From Candidatus Levyibacteriota bacterium (GTDB taxonomy: Bacteria > Patescibacteriota > Microgenomatia > Levybacterales > UBA12049): DNA of 64,000 nt. Within the stretch, counting starts at the first letter, position 1. Every line of letters begins with the position of its first letter. The notes beneath the pieces are model-generated. The model was not told where the DNA came from. It made no database searches and was given only the letters and a program-made list of their open reading frames with translations. Location of the stretch: positions 16,769-80,768 of the forward strand of contig JACQKQ010000012.1 in assembly GCA_016204465.1 (NCBI GenBank). Reading direction: 5' to 3'. Shown piece after piece: positions 2,747 to 53,443 of the stretch. The translations under genes were made by a program, and so were the position numbers.

Positions 2747-2754
2747 TACCAAAT

Positions 2755-2799: not shown

Positions 2800-2823
2800 T
2801 GTTTAATATTTAATTTTTCTATT

Positions 2824-5335: not shown

Positions 5336-5441
5336 CTCAAAGCTCAAAGCGAAAAGCGCAAAGCTACAGAAATTTACCCACAAGTTTTTAGTTTTTAGCT
5401 GTAATTTTGAGTTTTACCTTTTGAGTTTTGATTTTTTGTAT
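5336..5441 (+). promoter_or_regulatory. Imperfect-palindrome leader of fusA (homologous to the infA leader)
   Basis: The left arm CTCAAAGCTCAAAGCGAAAAGCGCAAAGCTACAG is complementary to the right arm CTGTAATTTTGAGTTTTACCTTTTGAGTTTTG. The element ends in TTTTTTGTAT immediately before the ATG. Confidence 0.65.
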
Positions 5442-7592
5442 ATGGTAGTTGCAACAACACAAACCCGAAAAGTACCACTCGATCACATCAGAAACATTGG
5501 CATTATTGCCCATATTGATGCTGGGAAAACCACGACAACCGAGCGTATCCTCTTTTACACCGGCAGAACCTACAAGATTGGTGACATTGACGAAGGCACA
5601 ACGGTTATGGACTGGATGGAAGAAGAACGAAAGCGCGGCATTACGATTGTGTCTGCTGCAACCACCGCATTCTGGATCCACACAAAAGACAAAGATACTG
5701 GGAAAGACGACCCCTACAGAATTAACATTATTGATACCCCAGGCCACGTAGATTTTACCGCAGAGGTTGAGCGTTCGCTTCGAGTTTTGGACGGAGGCAT
5801 CACGGTTTTGGATGCCGAGGAGGGCGTACAGTCACAATCCGAGACAGTGTGGCGCCAGGCAGACAAGTACAAAGTGCCGCGTATTTGTTTTATTAACAAA
5901 ATGGATAAATTAGGCGCAGACTTTTTGGCAACGATTAAAAGCATCGAAGATCGCTTAGGCGCAAACACGGCAATTATGGTGTTGCCCATTGGGTTTGAAG
6001 CATCGTTTAAGGGTGTTGTTGATCTTCTCAATAGAAAAGCATACGTGTGGGGTTCAGACGAGCTTGGCGCAAAGTACGACGTATCAGACGAAATTCCAGC
6101 AGACATGAAAACGCAGGTTGAGGAGTATAGACACAAACTTGTCGAAAAGATTGCCGAAACTGATGACAAGCTCATCGAAAAGTATCTTAACAATCAAGAA
6201 ATTTCAGTTGAAGAATTAAAGGCAGCGCTTCGCCGGGCTGTCATTGCCTACAAACTCGTGCCAATTTACGCCGGATCATCACTTCGCAATAAGGGAGTGC
6301 AACCCCTCCTCGATGCAGTTGTTGACTACCTTCCATCCCCGCCCGATCTTAAGGAAACAAAAGGTATTCATCCAAAAACAGGGCAAGAGGAAGTTCGGCA
6401 GCTGACACCAGAAGAATCTTTGAGTGGCCTTGCATTTAAGATTCAAAACGACCCGCATGTTGGAAAGCTTACCTACTTTCGCGTGTACTCGGGGAAAATT
6501 TCAGCCGGATCTTATGTATACAACAGTACCAAAAATATACAGGAGCGTGTTGGTAGACTTCTTTTAATGCACTCCAATCAGCGTGAAGAAATAAAAGTTG
6601 CAGAAGCTGGAGAAATTGTCGCAATTGTTGGGCTTAAGGATACGGGCACAGGAGATACGCTTTGCGACCAGGCAAAGCCGATAGTTCTTGAGAAAATTTC
6701 CTTCCCAGAACCGGTTATTTCCTTGGCAATTGAGCCAAAGACAAAATCCGACCAAGAAAAACTTGGGTATGCATTAAAACGGCTTATGGAAGAAGATCCA
6801 ACCTTCCAGGTTAAGACAAACCACGAGACAGGGCAGACGATTATTTCCGGTGTTGGCGAATTGCAGCTTGAGGTAAAGGTGCACCAGATGAAAAGCGACT
6901 TTGGCGTTGATGCAAACGTTGGCGCGCCGCAGGTTGCGTACAAAGAAACAATTAACCAAAAAGCGCAAGCAGAGGGAAAATACATTCGCCAATCCGGAGG
7001 ACGAGGCCAGTACGGGCACTGTTTTTTGCGCGTTGAGCCAAAGCCACGGGGCGAGGGATATGAATTTGTTGATGCAATTAAAGGTGGTGCAATTCCGGCA
7101 GAATTTGTCAAGGCAGTTGAAAAGGGTGTAGTTGATACTATGGAAAATGGTATTCTGCTTGGCTACCCATTGGTTGACATGACGGTTACCTGTTACGATG
7201 GGTCCTACCACGATGTTGACTCCTCTGAAATTGCTTTCAAAATTGCAGCATCGCAAGCGCTCCAGGCTGCTACAAAAAAAGCAAATCTTACCCTTCTTGA
7301 ACCAATCATGAAGGTGGAGGTTACGACTCCTTCTGAATTTATGGGAGACGTCATTGGCGATTTGTCTGCAAAACGGGCGCAGATTTTGGGAACAGAAGAA
7401 CGACACAAAGCAACCATTATTTTGGCCATGGTGCCGCTCGCCGAACTTTCCGGCTACGCAACCACTTTGCGCAGCATGACGCAAGGGCGAGCCAGCTACT
7501 ACATGGAGCCGTCCCACTACGAAGAAGTGCCCAAAAACATCCAAGAACAATTGCTTGCAAAATCAACATTTACTGGTCGAGTTTCTGCCTAA
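5442..7592 (+). CDS. fusA: Translation elongation factor G
   Basis: [18 protein letters not shown] and DTPGHVDF G-domain motifs, with full-length EF-G architecture. ATG 5442 is preferred over the TTG at 5421. Confidence 0.95.
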
Positions 7593-8923: not shown

Positions 8924-9610
8924 ATGAAAACGATTGTTTGTATTTTTGCCCATCCGGATGATGAGGCGTTTGGGCCGGCAGGAACGATTGCCAAGCTGGC
9001 TAAAGAAAATGATGTATACATCCTTTGTGCGACAAAAGGAGAAGCAGGATTACAAAATAAAAAATTAGAAATTAAAAATCAAAATGACAAAGCAAAAATA
9101 AAAAAATTAGGAGAGATACGGGCAGATGAACTCCGTCAATCAGCAAAAGTACTCGGTGTGAAGGGTGTTTACTTTTTGGGATTTGAAGACGGAACGCTTT
9201 GTAATAACCTCTACCATAAGCTTACGGCAAAGATCAAAAGAAAGTTACTGCAGCTCAAACCGGAAATCATTCTCACATTTGAACCAAAAGGCATCTCCGG
9301 ACACATAGACCATATTACGGTTTCGATGGTTGCCTCGTTTTTGTTTTACAAGCTCTTATTTATCAAAGAGATGTGGCAGCATTGTTTGCTTAAAGAGTAC
9401 CAATACATGGTAGGGCAAAATTACTTTATCTACTTTCCGCCAGGGTACGATAGATCAGACGTTGACAAAACAATTGATGTTTCGGATGTATGGGAAACAA
9501 AGGTTGCGGCAATGTATTGCCATAAAACCCAACTAAAAGATATAAAGCGCATCTTGCGCTCGTACGCAAAACGGCCAAAAGAGGAAAACTTTCTTGTTGT
9601 CACGAAATGA
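8924..9610 (+). CDS. PIG-L / LmbE family deacetylase
   Basis: IFAHPDDEAFGPAG and GHIDHI motifs. Carries a heptamer-repeat-encoded Lys/Asn-rich insert (9060-9108). Confidence 0.8.
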   Translation: MKTIVCIFAHPDDEAFGPAGTIAKLAKENDVYILCATKGEAGLQNKKLEIKNQNDKAKIKKLGEIRADELRQSAKVLGVKGVYFLGFEDGTLCNNLYHKLTAKIKRKLLQLKPEIILTFEPKGISGHIDHITVSMVASFLFYKLLFIKEMWQHCLLKEYQYMVGQNYFIYFPPGYDRSDVDKTIDVSDVWETKVAAMYCHKTQLKDIKRILRSYAKRPKEENFLVVTK

Positions 9611-10912: not shown

Positions 10913-11680
10913 TTATAATGTATATGGTACGTGGTGTTTGAAGGAGTTGCGTTTGACCCAATCAAGAATTATCTCTGCGTTTGCAAGGCCTCGCCTTGCA
11001 AGCTCATCAATACTCACTTTTTTTTCAAAATGCAAGTACAGCACCTGGTCTGCTTCTTGGTAAGTAAATCCAAATTCTCCCTCATCCGTTTGCCTCTGCC
11101 AAAGCCCTGCAGTTGGTTTTTGTTCAATAATTTTTTTGGGGACACCAAGATACTTTGCAAGTTTGTACACTTGGATTTTGTACAAGTGGCGAATCGGTTC
11201 AATGTCCGATGCCTCGTCGCCAAAACGGGTAAAGTAGGCTAAATAATGTTCGGATTTATTCTCTGTTCCAACCACAAGCGCATTTTCTTTTTTGGCAAAA
11301 TCGTACAAAAAAATCATCCTCATTCGAGCCATAATGTTACCCAGCCGAGTATTATTGTTTCCTAATTCGTTATTCCTAATTCCTAATTCATTTGAAACCG
11401 TATCGACAGCGCTTTTAATAGAGATCATTTTCAGATTTACGTCAGGTATACCTGTATATCTTACAAATTCTTTAATTTCTTTTTTGTCAGGTTTATAATA
11501 ATATAAATGTATAGGGAAAATATGTTCTTTTGGCAGTGCGCGGGATAAAAGAAAAAGTGAGGTTGTTGAGTCAATGCCTCCCGAAATACCAATAACTGCT
11601 TTTTGAACACCTTGTTCTGCGAACGTTTTTTTCAGGAAATAAATGATCTGCTCTATTTCTTTTTTCGCGTCTATTTTCAT
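10913..11680 (-). CDS. nadE: NH3-dependent NAD+ synthetase
   Basis: GISGGIDS PP-loop and a conserved NadE C-terminus. Contains a heptamer-repeat insert (ELGIRNNELGNNN). Confidence 0.85.
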   Translation of the reverse strand: MKIDAKKEIEQIIYFLKKTFAEQGVQKAVIGISGGIDSTTSLFLLSRALPKEHIFPIHLYYYKPDKKEIKEFVRYTGIPDVNLKMISIKSAVDTVSNELGIRNNELGNNNTRLGNIMARMRMIFLYDFAKKENALVVGTENKSEHYLAYFTRFGDEASDIEPIRHLYKIQVYKLAKYLGVPKKIIEQKPTAGLWQRQTDEGEFGFTYQEADQVLYLHFEKKVSIDELARRGLANAEIILDWVKRNSFKHHVPYTL

Positions 11681-12966: not shown

Positions 12967-13007
12967 GGCGTTAACCTTACAAGTTGTAGGGTGATTTTTT
13001 TAATATC

Positions 13008-14195
13008 ATGGCAGACGTTAAGAAATTTGTACGAACAAAACCACATGTAAATATCGGCACCATTGGCCACGTAGACCATGGTAAGACAACTCTTACAGCA
13101 GCAATCGCGACCGTCCTTTCCAAAAAGGGTATGGCGCAAGCAAAAAAATACGAAGATATTGACAATGCTCCAGAAGAAAAAGCACGCGGTGTTACGATTA
13201 ATATCACCCACATTGAATACGAGACCGAAAAGCGCCACTACGCGCACATTGACGCTCCAGGACATGCAGATTACATTAAGAACATGATTACAGGTGCTGC
13301 ACAAATGGATGGTGCAATTTTGGTAGTTTCGGCGCCAGACGGCCCAATGCCACAGACACGGGAGCATATTCTCTTAGCGCACCAGGTAGGAGTTCCGGTA
13401 ATTGTTGTATTTCTTAATAAAGTTGACATGGTGCAGGACGCAGAGCTTTTGGATCTTGTCGAGATGGAAGTAAGGGAGCTTTTAACCAAGTACCAATATC
13501 CAGGTAATGAAGTGCCAATTATTCGAGGGTCCGCTCTGAAGGCACTGGAAGGCGATGCCGAAGCAGAAAAACAAGTTATGCAACTTATGGATACGGTTGA
13601 TAGCTACATTCCAACACCTGCACGTGACGTTGATAAGCCCTTTATGATGGCAGTTGAGGACGTTTTTTCAATCAAGGGCCGAGGAACAGTTGTCACAGGC
13701 CGGGTCGAGAGAGGAAAAGTTAAGGTTAACGAAACAGTTGAGATAGTTGGTATCCGAAATACCAAATCAACTGTTGTTACAGGCGTTGAGATGTTTCGAA
13801 AGCAGCTTGATGAAGCGCAGGCAGGCGACAACGTTGGTTTACTGCTTCGCGGCATTGAAAAAACAGATGTTGAGAGGGGACAAGTTGTCGCAAAACCCGG
13901 CTCAATTACCCCCCACACTGAATTTGAGGCAGAAGTGTATATCTTGACCAAAGAAGAAGGTGGACGCCATACGCCATTCTTCACTGGGTATCGACCACAG
14001 TTTTACATTCGAACAACTGACGTAACAGCCGAGGTTGCCCTTCCGCAGGGTGTTGAGATGGTTATGCCGGGAGACAACACAAAAATGACAGTAAAACTTA
14101 TTGTGCCTGTTGCTTTAGAAGAAGGACTCCGATTTGCTATCCGCGAAGGCGGCAAAACAGTCGGCGCTGGAGTGATCAGTAAGATTATAAAATAA
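13008..14195 (+). CDS. tuf: Translation elongation factor Tu
   Basis: [21 protein letters not shown] and NKVD motifs; 395 aa. Confidence 0.97.
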
Positions 14196-14554: not shown

Positions 14555-14653
14555 TTGTTTCTGCTCTCAAAGTATAGTATAATAGTAAGTAACCTATGGA
14601 GGTGATAACGGCCTAATTCCTATTTCACGGAATTCACACGAATGGTAAGGTGG

Positions 14654-14678
14654 GTAGCCGAAATAGGCTACTTTTTTT
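14654..14678 (+). terminator. Terminator-like hairpin between rpsJ and rplC
   Basis: GTAGCC-GAAATA-GGCTAC followed by T7, ending 3 nt before the rplC ATG. Confidence 0.5.
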
Positions 14679-14681
14679 GTT

Positions 14682-15314
14682 ATGATTACAGGGTTTATTG
14701 GAACAAAGATTGGACAGACACAAGGTTTTACACAAACTGGGGTACGTATTCCTATTTCCAAAGTGAGTGTAGTCTCACTGCCTATTGTTTCGATCAAGAC
14801 CAAAGAAAAAGACGGTTACACAGCGCTGCAGGTTAGTGTAGGAGCAAAGAAACGAGAAATTCCTATTAAAGAAGATAGTGTAACCATGCCAAACGTCGGT
14901 GACATTCTTAAAATAACAGAAGTAGTAAAACCAGGAGATATTGTTGACGTTACGGGTATTTCGAAGGGGAAGGGGTTTGCAGGAGTTGTCAAGAGGCATC
15001 ACTTTAAAGGTGGGCCGCGAACGCACGGCCAATCAGACAGGGAACGAGCGCCCGGATCAATCGGTCAAACAACAACACCAGGAAGAGTTTATAAAGGAAA
15101 ACGGATGGCTGGTCGAATGGGTCACAATAAGGTAACAGTAAAAAACCTTACGGTTATGGATGCAACAGACAACGAAATTGTCATTAAAGGGCTTATTCCT
15201 GGAATTATCAATGGTATCGTTATGATCAAAAAAGTCGGAGAAAGCAAGAAGTTTTCTCCGCTTTATAAAGTTCAGATTGAAGAAATAAAGGAAGGGATAA
15301 AAGATGCCAGCTAA
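14682..15314 (+). CDS. rplC: 50S ribosomal protein L3
   Basis: GKGFAGVVKRHHFKGGPRTHGQSDRERAPGSIG is the L3 signature. Confidence 0.95.
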   Translation: MITGFIGTKIGQTQGFTQTGVRIPISKVSVVSLPIVSIKTKEKDGYTALQVSVGAKKREIPIKEDSVTMPNVGDILKITEVVKPGDIVDVTGISKGKGFAGVVKRHHFKGGPRTHGQSDRERAPGSIGQTTTPGRVYKGKRMAGRMGHNKVTVKNLTVMDATDNEIVIKGLIPGIINGIVMIKKVGESKKFSPLYKVQIEEIKEGIKDAS

Positions 15315-16053
15315 ACCAAAGTCAAAAATCAAAAGTCAAAAATCAAAGACTAACAAAAAGCCTGTAGCCACTATTGGTACTGTCAAAAAACCTGTTCGCG
15401 CTGCAAAAGGATTGACGGTTGATGTGTACGACATCAAAGGGAGTGTTGCTGGAACTATTTCCTTGCCAAAAGAAATTTTTGCTGCAAAAGTAAACTCGAG
15501 ACTTATGACCCAAGCGGTTCGCGTGTACCTTGCCAATCAGCGAAAGGGTACAGTATCGACAAAAACGCGTGGAGAAGTTATAGGCTCAACGCGTAAAATC
15601 TACCGGCAAAAAGGAACAGGAAGAGCGCGACATGGCGCTATCACAGCCCCAATCTTCGTTGGCGGCGGCGTTGTTTTTGGGCCAAAGCCTCGGGATTATG
15701 CGCTCAAGTTGCCGCAGAAAATGAAAAGAGCAGCACTTTTTTCTGCCATCAGTGCTAAAGTAAGCGATAATGCTGTAAGGGTTATTGCAGACCTTGAGAA
15801 AATTGCACCAAAAACAAAATCAATGGCAGCACTCGTTGATAAATTGCAGCTTGATTCTAACAAGAAGGTGCTTTTGGTTCTTCCTCAAAATGTTGATAAT
15901 GTGCTTCGCGCAGCGCGAAACATTCCAAATATTGAGATCATGCATGTTACCCAGCTTACTACTTACAAAGTACTTGAGAGCGTTTACATTCTTTTTATGC
16001 AGCAAGCACTAGATGCATTTTTAAAGCTGCGCAAAAAGGAGGAGAAGCAGTAA
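15304..16053 (+). CDS. rplD: 50S ribosomal protein L4 (Lys-rich N-terminal extension)
   Basis: [13 protein letters not shown]...[10 protein letters not shown] is the L4 core. The N-terminal [12 protein letters not shown] is encoded by a 14-nt tandem repeat at 15321-15348. Confidence 0.93.
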
Positions 16054-17417: not shown

Positions 17418-17804
17418 ATGGAAGTTACAGCATATACAAAATCAGTTCGCATCAGTCCACGAAAGGTTCGGCTTATCGCCGATGTAATTCGGGAAAAAAC
17501 AGCAGATGATGCATTGCGGCTTCTTGCAGCGGTGCAAAAGCGCGCTGCCAACCCGCTTGAGAAAACGATAAAAAGTGCAATTGCAAATGCAGTGCATAAT
17601 AAAAAAATTGCAAAAGAGAACCTTGTTATAAAACGGCTTGAAGTAACAGAAGGAACTGCGCTTAAGCGCTACCATCCATCAACAAGAGGAAGGATTCATC
17701 CGTATAAAAAACGAAGCAGCCACATTAAAATTGTCTTAACAGACAACAAAAATCAAAAATCAAAAATCTCGCCTCGCGGCAAAGCAGGCAAATTGCAAAT
17801 ATGA
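17418..17804 (+). CDS. rplV: 50S ribosomal protein L22 (repeat-encoded C-terminal tail)
   Basis: RISPRKVRLIADVIR is the L22 core. The tail NKNQKSKISPRGKAGKLQI is encoded by CAAAAAT x3 plus a GC-rich element. Confidence 0.92.
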   Translation: MEVTAYTKSVRISPRKVRLIADVIREKTADDALRLLAAVQKRAANPLEKTIKSAIANAVHNKKIAKENLVIKRLEVTEGTALKRYHPSTRGRIHPYKKRSSHIKIVLTDNKNQKSKISPRGKAGKLQI

Positions 17805-19937: not shown

Positions 19938-20272
19938 AAAAAAGTTCAAAGTTCAAAGTTAAAAGTTCAAAGTTACAAAAGGGGGATGAGGTGAAGATTG
20001 TTCGAGGCAGGGATAAAGGGAAAACGGGAAAAATTAATAAGGTATTTCCCAGGGTATCTAAAGTGCTTGTCCCTGGGGTTAATGAGTTTAAGCGGCATTC
20101 GAAAGCTAGGACGCAGTCACAAAAATCTGAAATTATTACAATTGTTAAGCCACTCCCTATTGCAAGCGTAGCGCTTATCTGTCCTAAGTGTCACGAGCCA
20201 ACACGCGTTGGTTTTTCGATGCTGGAAGGAAAGAAAACACGTATTTGTAAAAAGTGCCAACAAACATTATGA
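19934..20272 (+). CDS. rplX: 50S ribosomal protein L24 (heptamer-encoded N-terminus)
   Basis: KGDEVKIVRGRDKGKTGKI is the KOW core. The N-terminal KKSSKFKVKSSKLQ is encoded by AAAGTTC/AAAGTTA x5. Confidence 0.9.
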   Translation: MKKSSKFKVKSSKLQKGDEVKIVRGRDKGKTGKINKVFPRVSKVLVPGVNEFKRHSKARTQSQKSEIITIVKPLPIASVALICPKCHEPTRVGFSMLEGKKTRICKKCQQTL

Positions 20273-25762: not shown

Positions 25763-26600
25763 TATTAAGACTAAAGAAGAAATCGAAGCTATGGCAGAGG
25801 GAGGAAAGATCTTGTCTGAAGTTCTCCATACGGTCTTAGCACATATAAAGCCGGGCGTTTCGGAATTAGAACTTGATGCGGTTGCAGAAAAACTCATTTA
25901 CGATAGGGGGGCAGAAGTTGGGTTTAAGAAGGTACCAGGGTATAAGTACACGGTTTGTGTTTCAACAAACGATGTTGTGGTGCATGGGGTGCCAACAGCG
26001 TATCGGTTTAAGGAAGGCGACATTATTGGTATTGATTGCGGTGTTTTCTATAAGGGATTCCATACGGATATGGCGGAAACAATTCAAGTTCAAAATTCAA
26101 AGTTCCCGCCAAAGGCGAGGCTCGCCACAGACGGCAAAATTCAAAATGACCCCCCCGTTAATGCTCTGCATAGGCAAGTGCAGGCGGGCAATGAAAATAT
26201 AAAAAAATTTTTGGAGATTGGTAAGCATGCATTGAACGAGGCGATAAAGCAGGCAAAGACGGGAAGTCGGATCGGAAATATCTCAAAAACAATTCAAGAG
26301 ATCGTAGAAGGTGCAGGATATTCAGTGGTACGTAGCTTAGTTGGTCATGGTGTTGGTAGACAATTACATGAAGAGCCAGAGGTTCCGGGATTCTTAGTAA
26401 AAGGGGATATTGATAAAACGCCTCTTCTGAGGGTAGGAACGACTATTGCAATCGAAGTTATTTATAACATGGGTAAACCAGATGTAAAATACTCAACAGA
26501 TGACGAATGGACGATTAAAAGCGCCGATGGGAGTTTATCGGGGCTATTTGAACGGACAGTCGCCATTACCAAAAATGGTCCGCTTATCCTGACAAGATAG
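25755..26600 (+). CDS. map: Methionine aminopeptidase type I with ~40-aa repeat-derived insertion
   Basis: MINIKTKEEIE..., DIIGIDCGV, HTDMAETI, GHGVGRQLHEEP and IAIEV metal-ligand blocks. The insert is QNSKFPPKARLATDGKIQNDPP... Confidence 0.92.
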   Translation: MINIKTKEEIEAMAEGGKILSEVLHTVLAHIKPGVSELELDAVAEKLIYDRGAEVGFKKVPGYKYTVCVSTNDVVVHGVPTAYRFKEGDIIGIDCGVFYKGFHTDMAETIQVQNSKFPPKARLATDGKIQNDPPVNALHRQVQAGNENIKKFLEIGKHALNEAIKQAKTGSRIGNISKTIQEIVEGAGYSVVRSLVGHGVGRQLHEEPEVPGFLVKGDIDKTPLLRVGTTIAIEVIYNMGKPDVKYSTDDEWTIKSADGSLSGLFERTVAITKNGPLILTR

Positions 26601-26606
26601 CACTTA

Positions 26607-26635
26607 TTGCTCTCTATGTGTAGATTTGCTATAAT
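26607..26635 (+). promoter_or_regulatory. Putative promoter for infA (TTGCTC, 17-nt spacer with TGc, then TATAAT)
   Basis: -35-like TTGCTC at 26607-26612 and extended -10 TGCTATAAT at 26627-26635. Confidence 0.5.
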
Positions 26636-26640: not shown

Positions 26641-26748
26641 TAAGTTAAAAGTTCAAGGTTAAAAATGTAAAGTTACAATTGCGAGTTGACAGTTTTTAAT
26701 TTTGCATTGTAATTTTGCACTTTACATTTTGAATTTTTAACTTTTTTG
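26641..26748 (+). promoter_or_regulatory. Imperfect-palindrome leader of infA (homologous to the fusA leader)
   Basis: The heptamer-period left arm (26647-26681) is complementary to the T-rich right arm. TTACAAT(T)GC pairs with GCATTGTAA at the apex. The element ends in TTTTTTGTATG. Confidence 0.7.
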
Positions 26749-26749
26749 T

Positions 26750-26968
26750 ATGTCGCATCAGGGATCATTTGAAGTAGATGGCGTTGTAAAAGAATCGTTG
26801 CCAAATACGCTGTTTCGCGTACAGCTTCCTGATGGCAGTATCGTTTTGTGTCATTTGTCCGGCAAGATGAGAATGAATTTTATTAAAATCTTGCCGGGAG
26901 ATAAGGTTCGTATTGAGATGACACCGTACGATAGAACAAAAGGGAGAATCGTGTTTAGATTTAAGTAA
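26750..26968 (+). CDS. infA: Translation initiation factor IF-1
   Basis: 72 aa S1-fold with [16 protein letters not shown]...[16 protein letters not shown]...YD. Confidence 0.95.
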
Positions 26969-27596: not shown

Positions 27597-27998
27597 ATGG
27601 AGACAAAAGCAATAAAAATAGCGCCGGCAAAACAGAAAAAGCAGTTAGTGGTATCTCAGCAGGGAAAAGTGTACATCACGGCAACATTTAATAACACTTT
27701 GGTCACTATTACAAACGACAAGGGAGAGATAGTTGCGTGGAGCTCTGCGGGCGCGCGGGGCTTTAAGGGAACACGAAAATCAACTCCATACGCTGCTTCT
27801 TTGGCTGTAGAGAGCGCTGCTAAGAAAGCAGTAGAACGCGGTATGAAGTCAGTTGAGGTCTTTGTAAAGGGTCCGGGATCCGGGAGAGATTCAGCACTGC
27901 GTGCAATTAAGTCGGCAGGATTGTCTATCTCAATGATTGCGGATATAACACCCATGCCGCATAACGGCCCAAGAGCAAAGAAGAAACGGAGGGTGTAA
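27597..27998 (+). CDS. rpsK: 30S ribosomal protein S11
   Basis: G(K)[16 protein letters not shown]-type core and [12 protein letters not shown]. The internal ATG at 27597 avoids overlap with rpsM. Confidence 0.93.
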
Positions 27999-28003
27999 TG
28001 AAA

Positions 28004-28079
28004 ATATCAAATTTCAAATATCAAATTTCAAATATCAAACCATTAGAAATTAGAAATTGGAAATTAGAAATTAGAAATT
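28004..28079 (+). repeat. Two 5 x 7-nt heptamer arrays (ATATCAA/ATTTCAA, then AGAAATT/GGAAATT) in the rpsD leader
   Basis: Arrays at 28004-28038 and 28045-28079. AATTTC words of the first array are complementary to GAAATT words of the second. Confidence 0.85.
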
Positions 28080-28100
28080 CCATAGATTGGAGGGTAATCT

Positions 28101-28691
28101 ATGGGTAGGTATACAGGACCAAAACACAGAATAGCAAGACGCGAAGGGGTAAATTTGCTCGACAAGCAGTCGGGATCTCTTTTACGGCGGCTTAATATTC
28201 CACCGGGAGTCCATGGTAAAAAGCGAAAAAGGGCATTGTCAGAATTTGGTGTCCAGCTGCGAGAAAAACAAAAAGCAAAAGCAATATACGGTCTTCTGGA
28301 AAAGCAGTTTAAACGACTTGTAACCTCTGTTCAGAAGAAAAAAGGCGAAACAGGCGAAATGCTTATCGCGCTTTTAGAGACCCGGCTTGATAATCTTCTC
28401 TACCGTCTTGGACTTGCAAAGACGCGCTTTCAGGCAAGACAGTTTGTTACGCATGGACACGTCTTGGTAAATGGAAAAAAAGTTTCTATCCCTTCATACC
28501 AGGTGAATGTTGGTGATGAGATTGCTTTATCGCCTCATATGCAGGAAAAAGTTGTTCTAGAAAAAGAGCAGGCTTTTTTACCTTTTGTTGTCCAAGAAGG
28601 CGGTAAGGGAAAACTGCTTCATATGCCAAAACGCGAAGAAGTCCAGGTTCCGTTCGATACGCAGTTGATTATTGAATATTATTCAAGATAG
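28101..28691 (+). CDS. rpsD: 30S ribosomal protein S4
   Basis: MGRYTGPKHRIARREG... and an S4 RNA-binding domain (RLDNLLYRLGLA). GGAGGG SD sequence upstream. Confidence 0.95.
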   Translation: MGRYTGPKHRIARREGVNLLDKQSGSLLRRLNIPPGVHGKKRKRALSEFGVQLREKQKAKAIYGLLEKQFKRLVTSVQKKKGETGEMLIALLETRLDNLLYRLGLAKTRFQARQFVTHGHVLVNGKKVSIPSYQVNVGDEIALSPHMQEKVVLEKEQAFLPFVVQEGGKGKLLHMPKREEVQVPFDTQLIIEYYSR

Positions 28692-29660: not shown

Positions 29661-29733
29661 TACGAATGTATGCGAATGATCGATTATTCGAATTGATTCG
29701 AATACTTCAAATTCGTATGAATTCGTATTTTTT
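29661..29733 (+). repeat. CGAAT/ATTCG palindromic repeat cluster between rpoA and rplQ
   Basis: TACGAAT, GCGAAT, then ATTCG x4, ending ATTCGTATGAATTCGTATTTTTT. Confidence 0.8.
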
Positions 29734-29735
29734 AT

Positions 29736-30233
29736 ATGAGGAAGCGGGTTTTTGGAAGACAATTTAAACGAGATACAAATGAGCGTAAAGCCTTGTTTAA
29801 GGGTCTTATGAGTTCATTGGTGCTAAACGAGCGAATAACAACAACAATTGAGAAGGCAAAAGCAATCCGTCCTAAGCTTGAGAAACTCGTGACAAAAGCA
29901 AAAAAGGGAAACGGAGCTTCGTACCGCATAATCGTTCCATACCTTACCGCTTCAGCTATAAAAAAATTTATGGGCGAAGTTGCGCCTCGGTTTATAAATC
30001 GTCCGGGAGGCTACACGCGAATCATCCGTGTTGGAAACAGAATTAAAGATAATGCGCAAATGGCAATAATGGAATGGACGGAAAAGCCTGCAGCCATTGA
30101 ACACACTGTCAAAAAAACAGTTCGCACTACAAAAAACAGTGGTAAACAGCCCGTCTTGACGCGAGGCAGGCGGTCGCAAGACGGTGCAAAGACAGTGGTT
30201 GCAAGAAAACCGATAATTCGAAAAGCAAAGTAA
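29736..30233 (+). CDS. rplQ: 50S ribosomal protein L17 (basic C-terminal extension)
   Basis: GRQFKRDTNERKALFKGL...GGYTRI core plus about 50 extra residues. Confidence 0.9.
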   Translation: MRKRVFGRQFKRDTNERKALFKGLMSSLVLNERITTTIEKAKAIRPKLEKLVTKAKKGNGASYRIIVPYLTASAIKKFMGEVAPRFINRPGGYTRIIRVGNRIKDNAQMAIMEWTEKPAAIEHTVKKTVRTTKNSGKQPVLTRGRRSQDGAKTVVARKPIIRKAK

Positions 30234-30234: not shown

Positions 30235-30660
30235 ATGCAAACACTCTCAACACGATCAACAAAAGCAAGTTCCATCAAACGAGTCTGGCACCTTATTGAT
30301 GTTAAAGACAAGGTGTTGGGTAGAGTAGCAACAGGAATTGCGAAACTGCTTATGGGGAAAGCAAAGCCGTATTTTGTACGGCATCTTGACTGCGGGGACT
30401 ATGTTATTATTATCAATGCCAAACACATTAAGGTTACGGGTAAGAAAGAATCAGATAAAAAATATTTTACCTATTCTGGTTTTCCAGGTGGACTTCATGT
30501 GCGCACGCTCGCAAACTTTCGTTTGCAAAAACCAGAAGAAATTATTGTGCATGCGGTAAAAGGTATGCTTCCACAAAATAAATTGCGAGACCGCATGCTT
30601 TCTAGACTTTTTGTATTTCCAGAAGCAGAACATCCATACCAAGATAAAATAAAAAATTAA
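30235..30660 (+). CDS. rplM: 50S ribosomal protein L13
   Basis: WHLIDVKDKVLGRVAT...YFTYSGFPGG. Confidence 0.94.
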   Translation: MQTLSTRSTKASSIKRVWHLIDVKDKVLGRVATGIAKLLMGKAKPYFVRHLDCGDYVIIINAKHIKVTGKKESDKKYFTYSGFPGGLHVRTLANFRLQKPEEIIVHAVKGMLPQNKLRDRMLSRLFVFPEAEHPYQDKIKN

Positions 30661-30669
30661 AGATCAAAA

Positions 30670-31074
30670 ATGAAAAAAGACTATATTTTTGCCGTTGGTC
30701 GAAAAAAAGAATCTTCCGCGAGAGTCAGACTGTATCCAAGCGGTGAAAAAGGGGTAATAACGGTTAACGGCCAGCCGATTGAGACCTATTTTCCGGGAAA
30801 TGTTGCAAAAGCACAATACATGGCGCCTTTTTTTCTTACAAAGACAAATGATGTATTCATGGTAACAGTTAAAGTTGCTGGGGGAGGCAAGAGTGGGCAG
30901 CTATCTGCAGTAACGCACGGTATCGCTCGGGCACTAGCATTGTATAGCAAAGATGCATTTCGGCCAATTTTGAAGCTCCATGGACTACTTACACGGGATG
31001 CTCGTGTTAGAGAACGTCGCAAGGTAGGAACAGGCGGAAAAGCACGGCGCCAAAAACAGTCGCCAAAGCGGTAA
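30670..31074 (+). CDS. rpsI: 30S ribosomal protein S9
   Basis: GRKKESSARVRL...GGGKSGQ...LTRDARVRERRKVG...KRQKQSPKR. Confidence 0.95.
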   Translation: MKKDYIFAVGRKKESSARVRLYPSGEKGVITVNGQPIETYFPGNVAKAQYMAPFFLTKTNDVFMVTVKVAGGGKSGQLSAVTHGIARALALYSKDAFRPILKLHGLLTRDARVRERRKVGTGGKARRQKQSPKR

Positions 31075-40691: not shown

Positions 40692-41201
40692 ATGGATCAG
40701 CTCGACGTACTGTACAACAAGGCACTCCGTTTTCTCTCCTTTCGTCCTCGTTCAGAAAAAGAAGTTCGCGACAATCTCCTCAAGAGTAGGAAAAGTATAA
40801 AGAAGGTAGAAATAGATCAAAAAGTTATTGATCAAGTAATTACAAAACTTAAAGAGCAACACTTTGTTAACGATGAAGAATTCACAAAGTGGTGGATTGA
40901 ACAGCGGACAAAGTTTCGACCGAAAGGAAAACGGCTTATTCAGATTGAACTGAAGCAAAAAGGAATAGCGCAAGAGACAATAGAAAGAATAGTTGAAAGT
41001 TCAGAGTTGAAAGTTGAAAATGAATTAGAACGAGCCAAGGTGTTAGTTCAAAAAAAGTTACGAAAATATAAAAATCTTCCTCGATTTGAGCAGTATCAGA
41101 AATTAGGCGCAATGCTGGGGCGGTTTGGATTCGATTATGACATAATCAAGCAGAGTATTGACGAGGTTTTAAGAGGGGAGTATAATACATCTAAAGACTG
41201 A
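40692..41201 (+). CDS. recX: Recombination regulator RecX
   Basis: ALRFLSFRPRSEKEVRDNLLK and repeated three-helix modules. An alternative TTG start lies at 40668. Confidence 0.8.
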   Translation: MDQLDVLYNKALRFLSFRPRSEKEVRDNLLKSRKSIKKVEIDQKVIDQVITKLKEQHFVNDEEFTKWWIEQRTKFRPKGKRLIQIELKQKGIAQETIERIVESSELKVENELERAKVLVQKKLRKYKNLPRFEQYQKLGAMLGRFGFDYDIIKQSIDEVLRGEYNTSKD

Positions 41202-44839: not shown

Positions 44840-45622
44840 ATGAAACGGTATTTTGTTATTTGGCTTAAGCTTACCGGCATTACAACACAAATTGCGTTTC
44901 AGTCGCGGTTTGGCGCAATTGTGTTTTTGCTTGGGAAAATCCTGCGTTTTGCGTTTTTTCTCTTCTTTTTGGTTCTTGTTACGCAAAAAACACAGCTTAT
45001 TGCTGGCTACACCACATGGCAAATACTTTTTTTCTACGCAACGTTTAACCTTATTGATACGCTGCCACAGTTTTTCCTGCGTGAAGTGTACCGGTTTCGC
45101 TGGCAGGTAGTTTCGGGGCATTTTGACACAATTCTTACACGGCCAATCTCTCCACTTTTTAGAAGTCTTTTTGGTGGAAGTGATGTGCTTGATATTTCGA
45201 TACTCTTTCTCTCGATCATTTTTATCTTTATCGCCGGATCGCACATTGGTCAAATCACCGGCATACAAATCCTGTTGTATATAATGCTTATCATCAATGC
45301 GTTCATCATCGCGCTTGCGTTCCATATTACTGTGTTGGGCATGGGTATTCTCACCACCGAAGTTGATAATACAATCATGCTATATAGGGATTTAACGCAG
45401 ATGGGGAGAGTGCCGATTGATGTCTACTTGGAGCCGCTTCGGGGGCTTATTACCTTTATTATTCCAGTTGGCATCATGATGACATTTCCGGTAAAAGCGA
45501 TGATGGGGTTGCTCTCGCCCGAGACTATTGTGATCTCTTTTGCTATTGCGGCAGTGTTTTTGCTCTTAAGCCTTCAGTTTTGGAACTATTCCCTCAAACA
45601 CTACGCCAGCGCGAGTAGCTAA
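44840..45622 (+). CDS. ABC-2 family transporter permease (second subunit)
   Basis: MKRYFVIWLK... with multiple TM helices. The ATG at 44840 lies immediately after the upstream stop. Confidence 0.75.
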   Translation: MKRYFVIWLKLTGITTQIAFQSRFGAIVFLLGKILRFAFFLFFLVLVTQKTQLIAGYTTWQILFFYATFNLIDTLPQFFLREVYRFRWQVVSGHFDTILTRPISPLFRSLFGGSDVLDISILFLSIIFIFIAGSHIGQITGIQILLYIMLIINAFIIALAFHITVLGMGILTTEVDNTIMLYRDLTQMGRVPIDVYLEPLRGLITFIIPVGIMMTFPVKAMMGLLSPETIVISFAIAAVFLLLSLQFWNYSLKHYASASS

Positions 45623-46708: not shown

Positions 46709-49660
46709 TCAAACGCGGCAAAGCATTTTGTATTCACAATCGCGGCAGAAGATGCCGCTAGAACATGCAAAATCACTTTTTTCAATTTCTTCAACCTTCT
46801 TAAAGATTACTTCTTTTGCCGCTTCAAGCTGCTCACGTGTTCGTGTGGTGCTTATTTTCTTATCTTCTTCAATGTAATACAACGAGAGTGTGACATCATC
46901 AGGATTTCTGTTAAAAAGCGTGTCGTTTACGTTTGCTGCTGCAAGTGCGTACATGGTTAACTGTAAATTGTCAACAAGATCACCTTCATCTGGGATATTG
47001 CTGCCGGTTTTATAGTCAATAATTTCAATTGTGTTTTCGCCGACTTTATCAACCCTGTCAATCCGTCCTGCAAGTTTGAGACTTCGTTTGCGCAAGGCTC
47101 GATCAGTAACGTAAAATTGGAATGGCACTTCAACGCCAATTGGGTACCTGCCATGTTCCAAATGGCTGTGTTTGTCAAAATACTGGGCAAGGATTTCTTG
47201 TGCGCGCTGTCTTGCCTGGCTTTGGTGCGCTTTACTTGTGTATCCTTCATCAACCCAGCGATTTTCAAGAAATTTTAGTAGATCATTCTTTGTCGGTTTC
47301 CTGCCCGCGATTACCTCTTGATAAAAATCTTTGAGCGTCAAGTGGATACTTGAGCCAAAGCTTAACGCCGCTATCGGCTGGGGAGGAATTTTAAGAATGT
47401 ATCGAAGTTTATAGTGTAAGGGACAAAGGTCAAAACATTGTATCTGCGAAAATGAGAGGTAAGTGATGGGAACAGAGGTTTGAGGCTTGAGGTTAGAGGT
47501 TAGCTTTGATTGTCGTTCTGCCCAGTCCAAAAGCGATGGTTGGACAACGGCGCTTTGGGCTTTTTGTCTCAAGATTGCATCGTTTACTGCTTTCTCACCA
47601 AGCGCCTCGTAGACAAACGGCGAGATTTTTCGCTCCCGTTTTCCCTCTCCGTAAAAATTTGCAGCGGTAAAAAAGAGATAGTCGCAAGACCTTGTCATGC
47701 CAACGTAGAAAAGCCGTCGTTCCTCTTGCATATGGAAGTCGCCTTCGGGCAAAATCTCTTTAATAAGCTCTTGTGGAATAGGAATTTGCTCTTTGCGCTC
47801 GCGTGTTGGAAAGCGCTGTGAAACCAAATTGACTAAAAACACGATAGGAAACTCAAGGCCTTTGCTTGCATGGATTGTCAGAATATTCACCGCATTGTTT
47901 TCGTTCCAGTCCATGTCTGTTGCAAGTGGGCTTTCTCCCATTTGCATAGAAAGGTCAATCCAATCAACAACTGCAAATACACTCGCATCTTCGTGTTCTG
48001 CCTCATACGATTTGAGTTTTTCAAAAAACTTTGCGATGTTTTGGTAGCGCTTCATTTCGTATTCGCTTTTAGGCTCAAGAAACTTTTTAAGAAGACCAGA
48101 GTCCTGCAGAAAGTAGTACAAAATTTGTCCGGCTGTCTCTTTTGGAACAAGGTTAAGATGGCGCTTGAGCATACTGTAGATTTTTTGCAGTTCTTCAATA
48201 GTTTTCTCGTGGATTGGGAGAGAATCTGCGACCCTTTTTTGCACAACTTTTTCCAGCGCTTCAAAAAGCGTAAGGTTTTTACGCCTGGCAAGATTAAGTA
48301 GTGCCGCGATGTCGCGCATCTCAAGCAAAAACACTGGCATGGTAAGCACTCGATAAAGCGACGTTGTATCCTCGAAACTATAAAGGACCTTTAAGTAAGC
48401 AATTAGGTCTTTTATTTCGTCTTGATGAAACAGTTTTCCTGGTCCTAAAAATTGGAATGGAATATTATGCCTTAATAGCGCTCGTACAAACGCTTGCGCA
48501 TGGTCGTTTGCACGAATAAGAATTGCAATATCTTTATATTCATACTGTTTTTTTGCCAAAAGTAATTGAATTTTTTTGGCAACGCAATCAGCCTCATCCT
48601 CAACTCGCGTTCCCCACAAGAGTTCAATTTCTTTTCCTTTCACTTTTCGCATCGCTCTAAGCTTTTTTACAACCTTCTCTTTTACTTCGAGCCTATCAGG
48701 ATTATTGTGTTGTATTAAAGTATATGCGCTGTCTAATATTTCTTGCGTTGAGCGGTAATTTCCTGTAAGCGCTATGATTTTAGTATCTGGAAATTGTTTA
48801 CGAAATTGGATAATGTTGGAAATTGCGGCACCTCGCCAGCGGTAGATTGCCTGGTCGTCATCGCCAACAACAGTAATGTTTTTTCGCTTACCGGTAAGGA
48901 GTACAGCTAACTGATTTTGTGCAAAGTTAGTATCTTGGAATTCGTCAACAAGTATATAGTGAAATTGCTCTTGGTACTGGCGCAAGATATTTTTTCGCTC
49001 TCGGAAAAGCTTTAATGTGTTCGTTATTAGATCGGAAAAATCCATAACACCCTCTCGCGCTTTCAGCTCCTCATATTTTAGGTACATATTCGCTAATTCC
49101 AGCGTCTTTTTTGCTTCAATCTTATCAGCGTCTAGCGATAAGCGTTTAGCGTTTAGTTTTGCAGCATATTTTAGATAATCAGTAGGGCTCACATCTTCAT
49201 CTGCAAGCCGGCTAAAGTGCTGGAGGAGGCCTTCTAAAAATTTATTCGGGTTACCAAGCGGCCGAAAGTAGTCAAGCTTGAAAGCAAAAATATTTTTGCG
49301 CAAAAACATAACTGTTTCTGCTTCGGTCATAAGCTTATACGAGGGGTTAAGGCCAATATGAATTGCCTCTGTGCGCAAGATTCGATCGCAAAATGCATGG
49401 AACGTTGCAATCCACATCTGCGTGTAGCCATACGGCATTGCAATATCAACGCGCTCTTCCATTTCACGGGCTGCTTTATCAGTAAAAGTGAGGGCTAAAA
49501 TTTGCGAATGGTGAATATTCTTTTTAAGAATAAGGTGCTTTATGCGTTCTGTAACAACTGTTGTTTTGCCTGTACCAGCGCCGGCAATGATAATAAGCGG
49601 ACCTTCACCGTGGGTTACCGCATCGTGTTGCGCATCATTAAGAATTATAGCCTGCGGCAT
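46709..49660 (-). CDS. UvrD/PcrA-type helicase fused to a C-terminal PD-(D/E)xK nuclease with Fe-S cysteines (AddA/AddB-like)
   Basis: AGAGTGKTT Walker A, DEFQDT, further UvrD motifs, and a C-terminal domain with CPLHYKLRY ... IDYKTG ... CSSGIFCRDCEYKMLC. Confidence 0.88.
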   Translation of the reverse strand: MPQAIILNDAQHDAVTHGEGPLIIIAGAGTGKTTVVTERIKHLILKKNIHHSQILALTFTDKAAREMEERVDIAMPYGYTQMWIATFHAFCDRILRTEAIHIGLNPSYKLMTEAETVMFLRKNIFAFKLDYFRPLGNPNKFLEGLLQHFSRLADEDVSPTDYLKYAAKLNAKRLSLDADKIEAKKTLELANMYLKYEELKAREGVMDFSDLITNTLKLFRERKNILRQYQEQFHYILVDEFQDTNFAQNQLAVLLTGKRKNITVVGDDDQAIYRWRGAAISNIIQFRKQFPDTKIIALTGNYRSTQEILDSAYTLIQHNNPDRLEVKEKVVKKLRAMRKVKGKEIELLWGTRVEDEADCVAKKIQLLLAKKQYEYKDIAILIRANDHAQAFVRALLRHNIPFQFLGPGKLFHQDEIKDLIAYLKVLYSFEDTTSLYRVLTMPVFLLEMRDIAALLNLARRKNLTLFEALEKVVQKRVADSLPIHEKTIEELQKIYSMLKRHLNLVPKETAGQILYYFLQDSGLLKKFLEPKSEYEMKRYQNIAKFFEKLKSYEAEHEDASVFAVVDWIDLSMQMGESPLATDMDWNENNAVNILTIHASKGLEFPIVFLVNLVSQRFPTRERKEQIPIPQELIKEILPEGDFHMQEERRLFYVGMTRSCDYLFFTAANFYGEGKRERKISPFVYEALGEKAVNDAILRQKAQSAVVQPSLLDWAERQSKLTSNLKPQTSVPITYLSFSQIQCFDLCPLHYKLRYILKIPPQPIAALSFGSSIHLTLKDFYQEVIAGRKPTKNDLLKFLENRWVDEGYTSKAHQSQARQRAQEILAQYFDKHSHLEHGRYPIGVEVPFQFYVTDRALRKRSLKLAGRIDRVDKVGENTIEIIDYKTGSNIPDEGDLVDNLQLTMYALAAANVNDTLFNRNPDDVTLSLYYIEEDKKISTTRTREQLEAAKEVIFKKVEEIEKSDFACSSGIFCRDCEYKMLCRV

Positions 49661-52408: not shown

Positions 52409-53443
52409 TTAATCAAAATACAATTCTGGATTGGCGGTGATATTTTGCCAGTTAACTGGATTGTAGTTGAAAAAGGCGGCTGTGGCAATCATGGCGCCAT
52501 TGTCGGTGCAGAGAAATTTTTGTGGAACAAAAATTTCAGCGTTTATCGTATAGCGTTTAGCAGTTAGTTCAAATTGATTACGAAGTGCTTCATTCGCCGC
52601 AACGCCGCCCCCGAGGAGAATTGATTTTGCGTTGTACTTTTGCGCAGCGTTTAATGTTTTCTTTACGAGCACGTCAATGATTGCTTGTTGGACGGAGGCG
52701 GATATGTCCGCAATTGTTACATTGTTACATTGTTCTATTGTTTTTGTTAAACGAAGGGCTGCGGTTTTTAGTCCTGAAAACGAGAAGTCATAATCATCTG
52801 AATCTATCATTGGACGAGGAAAACGAAATGCCTTTGGATTTCCTTGCTTTGCCAGTTTTTCTATTGTCGGGCCCGCTGGGTATGGCAAGTTAAAGAGTCG
52901 TCCAATTTTGTCAAAGGCCTCACCAGCTGCATCATCACGAGTCCCCCCAAGCCAGACTATATCACCATGTTTCTTCATCAGAACAAGGTCGGTGTGGCCG
53001 CCGGACACAACCAGCGCAAGCGCTGGAAATTTCGAATTTCGAATTTCGAATTTCGAATTTGCGCGAACGAAGTTCGCGTAGATGTGGCCGATCAAATGAT
53101 TCACTGGGACAATTGGCTTTTTCCAAATATACGAAAGCGTTTTGGCTGTTTCAACGCCAACGAGAAGCGATCCAATGAGTCCGGGGCCATTTGTTACTGC
53201 AATTGCATCTATTTCCTTCTCATTGAAATTTGCATCTTTTAGGGCTTTTTTAATAACCGGAAGAATATATTCTATTTGCGCTCGAGCAGCAACTTCGGGA
53301 ATAATACCGCCGGTTTTTGCGTGCAAGGGCAATGACGAGCTCATAAAATTGGAAAGAAGAGCAACACGCGATGCGTTCTGTGTTCCTTTGACAACTGCTG
53401 CCGCTGTTTCGTCGCAAGAGGTTTCTATGCCAAGAATTACCAT
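52409..53443 (-). CDS. tsaD: tRNA N6-adenosine threonylcarbamoyltransferase TsaD with heptamer-encoded insert
   Basis: ILGIETSCDETAAAVV, HLIGHIYA, VVSGGHT and GGGVAAN motifs. The insert is NSKFEIRNSKF. Confidence 0.93.
   Translation of the reverse strand: MVILGIETSCDETAAAVVKGTQNASRVALLSNFMSSSLPLHAKTGGIIPEVAARAQIEYILPVIKKALKDANFNEKEIDAIAVTNGPGLIGSLLVGVETAKTLSYIWKKPIVPVNHLIGHIYANFVRANSKFEIRNSKFPALALVVSGGHTDLVLMKKHGDIVWLGGTRDDAAGEAFDKIGRLFNLPYPAGPTIEKLAKQGNPKAFRFPRPMIDSDDYDFSFSGLKTAALRLTKTIEQCNNVTIADISASVQQAIIDVLVKKTLNAAQKYNAKSILLGGGVAANEALRNQFELTAKRYTINAEIFVPQKFLCTDNGAMIATAAFFNYNPVNWQNITANPELYFD

Follow-up and report, generated by a model that had tools for sequence, protein, structure and literature searches.

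The 64-kb window analyzed here (the whole stretch of 64,000 nucleotides from contig JACQKQ010000012.1) belongs to a metagenome-assembled genome (MAG) of Candidatus Levybacteria (Microgenomates, Candidate Phyla Radiation, CPR), as determined from its ribosomal protein S4; the first-pass annotation, made from the sequence alone, had already spoken of a CPR genome. The GC content of the genome is about 41%, and its coding strands are A-rich. The objects of the analysis were tandem arrays of 7-nt units, two of which lie in the spacer between the ribosomal protein genes rpsK and rpsD. The same annotation had described a dispersed family of such microsatellites, located in leaders and, in frame, in conserved genes, and this description was borne out by Tandem Repeats Finder, a lag scan, Pfam searches and inspection of the reading frames. 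The units follow each other contiguously, without spacers, which agrees with its statement that they represent neither clustered regularly interspaced short palindromic repeats (CRISPR) nor codon-level low complexity; a CRISPR array, whose repeats of 23-50 nt alternate with unique spacers of comparable size, was rejected on this ground. Arrays were detected with Tandem Repeats Finder and our own lag-k scan, a score of at least 12 being required for a strict array. The focal spacer contains the following features:

28002-28039, plus strand: focal array 1, AAATATC/AAATTTC, period 7, 5.4 copies, 87% matches (Tandem Repeats Finder)
28042-28079, plus strand: focal array 2, ATTAGAA (i.e., GAAATTA), period 7, 5.4 copies, 93% matches
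28080-28104, plus strand: small hairpin CCATAGATT-GGAGGGTA-ATCTATGG, whose loop contains the Shine-Dalgarno sequence and whose stem contains the rpsD ATG (28101); conserved in locus L002

Focal array 1 begins 4 nt downstream of the rpsK stop codon (27996-27998) and, read as a 14-nt alternation of AAATATC and AAATTTC, comprises 2.7 copies with 100% matches. The two arrays are partly complementary and form an imperfect hairpin (fold z = -2.73 for the rpsD leader). The clade sample used for comparison consisted of the window and 46 Levybacteria loci, 622 kb in total; with the exception of the 64-kb window and one tsaD locus, the comparison DNA represents the ribosomal-protein neighborhood, 20-64 kb per genome. 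The rpsK>rpsD spacer was 22 nt or shorter in 33 of the 46 loci, and in 13 of these 33 the two genes overlap by one base. In 12 of the 46 loci it was 64-114 nt long, and 11 of these long spacers fold with z < -2 (fold z-scores for this spacer and for the rpoA>rplQ spacer across loci were calculated from mononucleotide shuffles). The 12 long spacers hold at least eight unrelated repeat-hairpin sequences at one site, and close relatives differ in their content: L099 carries a cassette that is missing from L011 (86.6% identical DNA), and the one in L102 is unrelated. The rpsK>rpsD hairpins are insertion-like, since most relatives lack an insert. A further locus, L020 (Microgenomates), has in its rpsK>rpsD spacer (~40-170) a long hairpin of 10-11-nt repeats (ATAAATCTACAA / TTTGTAGATTT), similar in architecture to the heptamer cassettes and different in period.

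Periodicity in the window is concentrated at 7 nt and its multiples. Arrays with a score of at least 12 numbered 10 at lag 7, six at lag 14 and three at lag 21, against 0-3 at each of the other lags from 2 to 22. Autocorrelation at lag 7 over the whole window was above background, with a global identity of 0.2665 versus 0.2589 +/- 0.0016 in 100 dinucleotide shuffles (z = 4.8); lags 4, 5, 10 and 11 remained at background, and lag 8 was also elevated (z = 3.0). Long lag-7 runs occurred about 0.01 times in dinucleotide shuffles versus 4-10 arrays in the window. Tandem Repeats Finder and the lag-k scan together found all but two of the arrays listed in the first-pass annotation and revealed others absent from that list (2786-2804, 5336-5364, 5383-5437, 30646-30677, 40991-41019, and 44943-44957). 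The strict 7-nt period ascribed to the arrays does not apply to all of them: the infA leader array has a period of 14 with 75% matches, and the map array consists of three imperfect copies. Identical words were said to link distant loci; this holds for TTAGAAATTAG, present in three copies (28043, 28064, and 54461) versus 0.06 expected, but the distant locus itself has other periods:

54439-54496, no strand assigned: spacer between two minus-strand genes, with the words GGAAATT and TTAGAAATTAG and periods of 8-9

This spacer is a relative of the heptamer phenomenon and not a strict member of it. The proposed consensus RAAAWTY proved too narrow. The feature common to the units is an AAA run plus four variable bases; 44 different canonical units were found in the clade, nearly all with AAA, and a single RAAAWTY sequence family was therefore rejected. 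Thus, the periodicity is conserved and the sequence is not.

The period-7 signal is a lineage property of Levybacteria. Their DNA contained 111 period-7 arrays in 622 kb, versus 2-22 for each of the periods 4-12, and the density was 178 per Mb, versus 3-35 per Mb at periods 4-13. In the loci that come next in S4 identity, most of them from other Microgenomates, there were 70 period-7 arrays per Mb, and unrelated bacteria with the matching gene neighborhood had 17.5 per Mb with no excess over other periods. Arrays were 16-fold denser in intergenic than in coding DNA of the clade (0.90 versus 0.056 per kb; 61 versus 30 arrays), gene calls being a greedy approximation from open reading frames (ORFs). 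Chance low complexity or an assembly artifact has a practically negligible probability as an explanation. It would draw on the AT-rich genome (~41% GC) and A-rich coding strands, but it is refuted by the shuffle statistics (about 0.01 long lag-7 runs versus 4-10 arrays), by the period census with other periods near zero, and by the clade densities. Moreover, an assembly artifact is hard to reconcile with the recurrence of period-7 arrays at orthologous positions in dozens of independent assemblies. Outside the CPR, some Chloroflexi loci (Anaerolineae) of the sample carry G+C-richer heptamer arrays CTAGTAG, CCCATCA and CCAGTAA (L028, 9519-9573; L068, 1856-1885 and 7888-7916), and heptamer-rich lineages thus exist there as well.

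The intergenic arrays mostly occur as adjacent pairs in which the second array is an imperfect reverse complement of the first, so that a hairpin is formed; 40 such folding pairs were found in the clade sample. A typical pair begins a few bases after a stop codon or -10 box and consists of the first array, a loop and the complementary array, with 1-11 nt, often a T run, between it and the ATG; the next ATG lies within 1-11 nt of the hairpin in about 60% of the pairs. The sense-strand RNA is stabler than the antisense in 26 pairs versus 13, a weak bias (p ~0.05). In the window, the following leaders and spacers are paired or structured:

2751-2781, plus strand: 5' arm of the rpsL leader, AAATTCA-type, 4.4 copies, 4 nt after a TTGAAG-18-TATAAT promoter-like site (2718-2747)
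2786-2804, plus strand: 3' arm of the rpsL leader, TTTTTGC, 2.7 copies, pairing with the 5' arm; fold z = -2.8
5336-5364, plus strand: 5' arm of the fusA leader, CTCAAAG, 4.3 copies, directly downstream of a TATACT box
5383-5437, plus strand: T-rich arrays of the fusA leader, AGTTTTT / TTTTGAG, complementary to the 5' arm, followed by TTTTTTGTAT and the fusA ATG (5442)
26642-26745, plus strand: infA leader hairpin, in which the 5' arm 26642-26679 (AAGTTAAAA-type, period 7/14) pairs with the 3' arm 26697-26745
29661-29738, plus strand: structured rpoA>rplQ spacer with CGAAT/ATTCG words, ending in TTTTTTATATG; z = -5.7

The fusA leader folds with z = -1.8. The infA hairpin (z = -6.55) starts about 7 nt past TATAAT (26629-26634) and is followed by TTTTTTGT and the ATG at 26750. 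In the subclade of the window, a hairpin of 70-120 nt with a highly variable sequence lies between the -10 box and the infA ATG, usually followed by a U run. In deeper Levybacteria, infA has the arrangement TATAAT-N6-8-ATG and is apparently leaderless; such loci are L011, L014, L015, L097, L098, L102-L104, L106, and L108 (at ~8.7-8.8 kb in the 20-kb loci), and their promoter is conserved as TTGCTCTTT..GGCTAGTTTG.TATAAT. A long, structured rpoA>rplQ spacer was found in 32 of 33 loci; in relatives, it contains (AAATTCG)/(AAATCCG) arrays. Intrinsic terminators have a G+C-rich stem-loop and a subsequent U run. Long A/U-rich stems followed by T5-8 precede infA, fusA and rplQ; a terminator consensus scan requiring at least three G-C pairs called none of these stems, and a consensus promoter scan found the rpsL promoter. 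A whole-window Rfam scan revealed only one tRNA and no match in the leaders or hairpin spacers.

The start context "T5-8 (G)TAT..ATG" without a Shine-Dalgarno sequence recurs downstream of a hairpin at fusA (5427-5444), infA (26741-26752), rplQ (29728-29738), rplC (14672-14684) and tuf (12996-13010), while rpsD has a strong GGAGG instead. The rpsJ>rplC spacer (14555-14684) contains a promoter-like box, TATAGTATAAT, and then a structured leader. The latter ends in a G+C-rich hairpin (GTAGCC-GAAAT-AGGCTAC) and T7 directly before the rplC ATG, resembling a terminator or attenuator with no Rfam match.

Such an architecture could be a selected cis-regulatory RNA lattice for a protein that binds single-stranded RNA and covers about 7 nt (cold-shock-domain, S1 or HutP-like); its binding would open or close the hairpin and thereby control termination, stability or translation of translation-apparatus genes. 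The position of arrays directly after promoters or stop codons and 1-11 nt from the next ATG in ~60% of pairs, the run of 5-8 U often found between the hairpin and a start codon without a Shine-Dalgarno sequence, and the greater stability of the sense RNA (26 versus 13) are consistent with this. The hairpin is also kept at infA throughout the subclade of the window and at rpoA>rplQ in 32 of 33 loci despite complete turnover of its sequence. RNA-binding arrays of the HutP or TRAP type consist of UAG or GAG triplets at regular distances, bound by an oligomeric protein; HutP sites have a UAG-N4 spacing, and positions 28042-28079 read as UAGAAAU repeated, the only array with UAG at 7-nt spacing. 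Binding of one heptamer per CspB molecule is an idea raised for TAACTGA repeats (PMC4679880). However, no single specific binder fits, because leaders within one genome have different units; a third of the arrays lie inside genes with no apparent regulatory role; the rpsK>rpsD element is absent from most relatives; the leaders and hairpin spacers gave no Rfam match; and the sense/antisense bias is weak (p ~0.05). We therefore consider a regulatory lattice doubtful.

The arrays inside genes of the window are in-frame direct repeats of 15-56 nt. Most of them lie between Pfam domains or outside them, and their sites are tails, linkers and loops. Pfam confirmed the identity of PIG-L, NadE, L4, L22, L24, L13, S9, RecX, the UvrD/PD-(D/E)XK helicase, and TsaD. 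The individual arrays, including one that spans a gene junction, are as follows:

9049-9104, plus strand: degenerate in-frame array in the PIG-L deacetylase gene, aa 44-54, QNKKLEIKNQN
11359-11389, minus strand: in-frame array in nadE, sense unit GAATTAG, aa 98-106
15318-15347, plus strand: in-frame array in the N-terminal extension of rplD, AAAGTCA/AAAATCA in perfect 14-nt alternation, aa 5-15, with the L4 domain starting at aa 52
17747-17768, plus strand: in-frame array in the C-terminal tail of rplV, AAAATCA, 3.1 copies, 100%, aa 110-117, with the L22 domain ending at aa 108
19941-19979, plus strand: array at the N-terminus of rplX, AAAGTTC, 5.4 copies, an 11-aa insertion after Met-Lys; relatives start with MKLKKGD
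26085-26105, plus strand: hypervariable loop of map, three imperfect units AAGTTCA AAATTCA AAGTTCC (confirmed by eye)
30646-30677, plus strand: degenerate array at the rplM/rpsI junction, AAAATAA-type, 4.6 copies, covering the last rplM codons, a 9-nt spacer and the first rpsI codons
40991-41019, plus strand: in-frame array in the RecX linker, AAAGTTG-type, 4.1 copies; the second helix-turn-helix domain (HTH2) ends at aa 106 and HTH3 starts at aa 117
47474-47503, minus strand: in-frame array in the helicase linker, sense AAACCTC, 4.3 copies; UvrD_C extends to aa 667 and PD-(D/E)XK starts at aa 735
49127-49156, minus strand: in-frame array in the N-terminal region of the helicase, sense AAACGCT, 4.3 copies, aa 169-176
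53028-53060, minus strand: hypervariable loop of TsaD between YANF and FPAL, sense AAATTCG, 4.7 copies, 100%, NSKFEIRNSKF

All 30 coding arrays of the clade have more A than T on the sense strand. These include four window arrays in minus-strand genes, and the orientation therefore follows the gene and not the chromosome strand. In nadE, the third unit is GAATAAC and not GAATTAG, a perfect copy of which would place a TAG in frame at this point. Levybacteria homologues of TsaD vary greatly in the length of the hypervariable loop that follows YANF. The 68%-identical TsaD homologue of L161 has a perfect (AAATCCG)4.5 array at the site, and in the register, of the (AAATTCG)4.7 array of the window. 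That both arrays are perfect in genes so distantly related indicates, on sequence comparison, concerted evolution inside the essential tsaD gene. Neither of these two arrays has a complementary partner, and neither is palindromic. The map loop behaves much like the TsaD loop, with related array-encoded peptides in relatives, such as RNSKFEIRN in L085. Elsewhere in the CPR, the TsaD loop of other homologues (P0011, P0053, P0062, P0066; L162, 930-960) carries inserts of the type "SLRAKRSN...EIASS...PRNDK," which look like a translation of a G+C-richer palindromic repeat of the CGCAATGAC type; a repeat of this type also adjoins a heptamer array in a viral contig. A 53-nt segment of the N-terminal extension of rplD (15356-15408) is 77% identical to one of the C-terminal extension of rplQ (30082-30134), and both encode Lys-rich tails.

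The contingency behavior suggested by the first-pass annotation, in which genes would be turned on or off by phase variation whenever a unit is gained or lost, is very improbable. A 7-nt unit is not a multiple of 3, so a single-unit change shifts the frame, and phase variation by simple sequence repeats (SSRs) is well known in host-adapted pathogens (PMC4692102, PMC4679880). In phase-variable loci, an SSR in the promoter or at the 5' coding end switches surface, virulence or restriction-modification genes on and off between strains, but the arrays studied here lie in housekeeping and essential genes (ribosomal proteins, TsaD, Map, NadE), with no surface or restriction-modification genes among them. 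All examined orthologues of tsaD, map and rplX were in frame, stop-creating units are avoided, and the arrays occupy tolerant tails, loops and linkers. Coiled-coil heptads were rejected because the arrays encode only one or two peptide repeats. Loss of mismatch repair as a cause was rejected because 7-nt loops are not known to be substrates of MutS.

Several arrays are similar to each other within and between genomes. Two spacers of L006 and one of L092 contain an identical 66-nt cassette, whose arms are (TTGAGAR)3 and (TTTCMAC)3, and two further L092 spacers have near-identical copies, while the flanking genes of L006 and L092 are only ~80% identical. A common vocabulary across spacers of one genome was also found in L102 and L106 (TAGGT/ACCTA), and L021 has CTGATAG arrays at three sites spread over 11 kb. 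The window itself contains no multi-copy cassette, each leader having a different unit; its rplX array matches the 5' arm of the infA leader with 92% identity over 24 nt. Cassette identity, reuse of vocabulary and the rplX/infA similarity suggest copy-paste or conversion of whole cassettes, or sequence-specific selection.

It is possible, but unlikely, that the hairpins are primarily small mobile or conversion-spread palindromic cassettes with heptamer arms, inserted into spacers and in frame into genes, with slippage being secondary. The copies in L006 (two) and L092 (three), which have 66 nt in common between diverged flanks, the three CTGATAG sites of L021, the rplX/infA similarity, and the presence or absence of an rpsK>rpsD cassette among close genomes (L099, L011 and L102) point in this direction. 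The TsaD loop of other CPR homologues hosts other translated palindromic elements, and in-frame palindromic insertion is known from the Rickettsia palindromic elements (PMC10969869). Against this, the cassette ends showed no obvious terminal inverted repeats or target-site duplications, although no systematic search was made. The clade has 44 units and at least eight unrelated cassettes at rpsK>rpsD alone, the window lacks a multi-copy cassette, and neither of the two coding arrays examined (TsaD of the window and of L161) is accompanied by a complementary array. Every unit of one TsaD array differs from those of its orthologous counterpart by a single base, a pattern that fits in-place evolution.

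Plain arrays of the TTGAGAR arm are present in two unrelated viral contigs; as evidence of mobility they were rejected, being convergent and uninformative. In L163 (an IMG/VR contig), a 9.5-copy TTGAGAA/TTGAGAG array at 7110-7175 lies 8 nt upstream of the start of a minus-strand phage gene and adjoins portal and head-morphogenesis genes; its unit equals that of the L006/L092 cassette. (AAATTCG)4 was absent from the viral contig scans.

The explanation we favor, with a rough probability of 0.55, is that the arrays are heptanucleotide SSRs accumulated by Levybacteria, born by slippage and filtered by selection, with possible copy-paste of cassettes. Slipped-strand mispairing at replication would create and homogenize the arrays in steps of one, two or three units. 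Complementary arms could be made or kept by fold-back (quasi-palindrome) template switching or by selection for pairing, and whole hairpin cassettes seem to be copied between neighboring spacers of one genome. Selection would then determine where arrays survive, as is in part visible in their distribution. In leaders and intercistronic spacers, they would persist almost only as two complementary, hairpin-forming arrays, the hairpin extruding the 60-110 inserted bases and keeping the stop codon or transcription start next to the start codon. We infer this self-folding requirement because the spacers are bimodal in length and the infA relatives are leaderless. The hairpins may also act as stabilizers of mRNA 5' or 3' ends, processing sites or attenuators. 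In genes, arrays would persist only when their sense strand is A-rich (encoding hydrophilic Lys/Asn/Ser/Glu peptides), free of stops and in frame, within tolerant segments. Slippage preferring 7-nt registers is the simplest common cause of the coding and non-coding periodicity. The coexistence of 44 units under one period and the two perfect but different TsaD arrays are signs of slippage and of continuing homogenization. Perfect 14-nt super-periods imply that multi-unit slips occur, and 21-nt steps in genes are therefore plausible. Of the origins first proposed, slippage, a mini-element and a binding array are all live options, and mobile-element and lattice readings are compatible with slippage.

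Several points weigh against this explanation. Slippage alone leaves unexplained the pairing of complementary arrays, the identical 66-nt cassette of L006 and L092 within ~80% identical flanks, and the vocabulary common to several spacers of one genome. A 7-nt slip in an essential gene is a frameshift, so 21-nt steps or one-step insertions are needed, neither of which was observed directly. The period of 7 itself is unexplained, the polymerase footprint being only a published hypothesis. For comparison of copy numbers, relatives closer than about 71% were found neither in genome-contig and metagenome-contig scans with S4 nor in a protein search with TsaD: the nearest species representative is 71% identical by S4, and the next TsaD after the window's own is also 71% identical, the identical one being a single database entry from an NCBI MAG. 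Finally, nearly all comparison DNA comes from the ribosomal-protein neighborhood.

Among known systems, the Levybacteria arrays belong with the prokaryotic heptanucleotide long SSRs; they add a new example to a known excess and do not represent a novel type of system. In most prokaryotic genomes, no other class of long SSR is as abundant as the heptamers, for which an origin by polymerase slippage has been suggested (Mrazek 2007, as presented in PMC4679880 and PMC4692102). In that presentation, long SSRs have over-represented 7-nt units, are mainly intergenic, comprise few copies per array and are phylogenetically patchy, all of which applies to Levybacteria; here, too, head-to-tail 7-nt units exceed chance and period 7 stands above neighboring unit lengths. 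However, units that are not a multiple of 3 are described there as avoiding coding regions, whereas a third of the Levybacteria arrays lie in frame in conserved genes, and the intergenic ones are mostly paired into hairpins. The absence of a fixed unit, the systematic spacer-filling hairpins, and the substantial in-frame share in housekeeping genes set them apart. A literature search for heptamers or SSRs in CPR/Patescibacteria revealed no reports.

Heptamers of cyanobacteria include the short tandemly repeated repetitive (STRR) sequences of Calothrix/Nostoc, GGGGAYT, (TTCAAAA)3, and GACYAAT x8 near start codons (PMC4692102; bioRxiv 10.1101/2022.06.06.494920). Like the Levybacteria arrays, they are located in within-operon spacers, near start codons or promoters, and some form inverted pairs; the unit TTCAAAA was also found in Levybacteria locus L001. 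In contrast, cyanobacterial STRR consist of a few fixed G/C-containing units in another phylum, while Levybacteria have 44 AT-rich units without a fixed consensus. The STRR units are CCCCAGT, TTGGTCA and CAACAGT; rather than these units in a heterocystous cyanobacterium, we found AT-rich AAA-containing units in a Levybacteria host. The TAACTGA direct repeats of marine Beggiatoaceae (PMC4679880) and the GGGAATC repeats of Xanthomonas (PMC4692102), for which a role in translation and binding of cold-shock proteins were proposed (PMC4679880, PMC4692102), are likewise present in 2-6 copies directly upstream of start codons and vary in length and sequence at one intergenic site between close relatives. 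They differ in having one dominant, mostly unpaired unit per genome, G-rich and quadruplex-prone in Xanthomonas, whereas the Levybacteria units are diverse and their pairing into hairpins is systematic.

Repetitive extragenic palindromes (REP) and bacterial interspersed mosaic elements (BIME), as well as Rickettsia palindromic elements, are also extragenic palindromes in operons, lineage-specific and present in several copies per genome, and those of Rickettsia enter housekeeping genes in frame, at positions where the protein structure tolerates them (PMC10969869). The spacer hairpin pairs are imperfect extragenic palindromes of this kind, and in-frame arrays occur at tolerant sites (the L24 N-terminus, TsaD and Map loops, RecX and helicase linkers). 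However, REP (~35 nt) and Rickettsia elements (~150 bp) have a conserved consensus and a defined length, while the Levybacteria arms are periodic and their sequences site-specific. REPs have a dedicated RAYT (REP-associated tyrosine transposase), which is IS200/IS605-like. A conserved multi-copy consensus was not found in the window and only partly, with 2-3 copies, in L006/L092, and instead of a conserved palindrome of ~100-150 bp with a conserved peptide, the coding arrays are 15-56-nt direct repeats with gene-specific units.

These data extend the unexplained bacterial bias toward 7-nt microsatellites to the CPR. With a density about 10 times that of unrelated bacteria, Levybacteria offer a natural setting in which the reason for a period of 7 can be addressed cleanly. 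Frame-breaking repeats evolving in concert in essential genes (tsaD, map, ribosomal proteins) constrain models of repeat expansion, and insertions of 60-110 nt between coupled cistrons, or between the transcription start and a leaderless AUG, appear to be tolerated when folded into hairpins. The arrays are also sites at which CPR genomes are especially prone to misassembly, annotation errors and spurious "hypervariable loops." A more far-reaching and rather improbable possibility is that heptamer hairpin cassettes are an active element class of the CPR, either self-propagating (spreading among spacers and genomes and also landing in frame in essential genes) or a 7-nt RNA-chaperone lattice, which would add a lineage-wide post-transcriptional layer to translation-apparatus operons; in that case, a leaderless infA mRNA would have been converted into one with a 5'-terminal hairpin.

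A minor observation in the window concerns another period: an inverted repeat of period-8 arrays (AGATATTA) with 31-nt arms, 87% complementary, was found at 58111-58185, inside the ORF 57463-58344.

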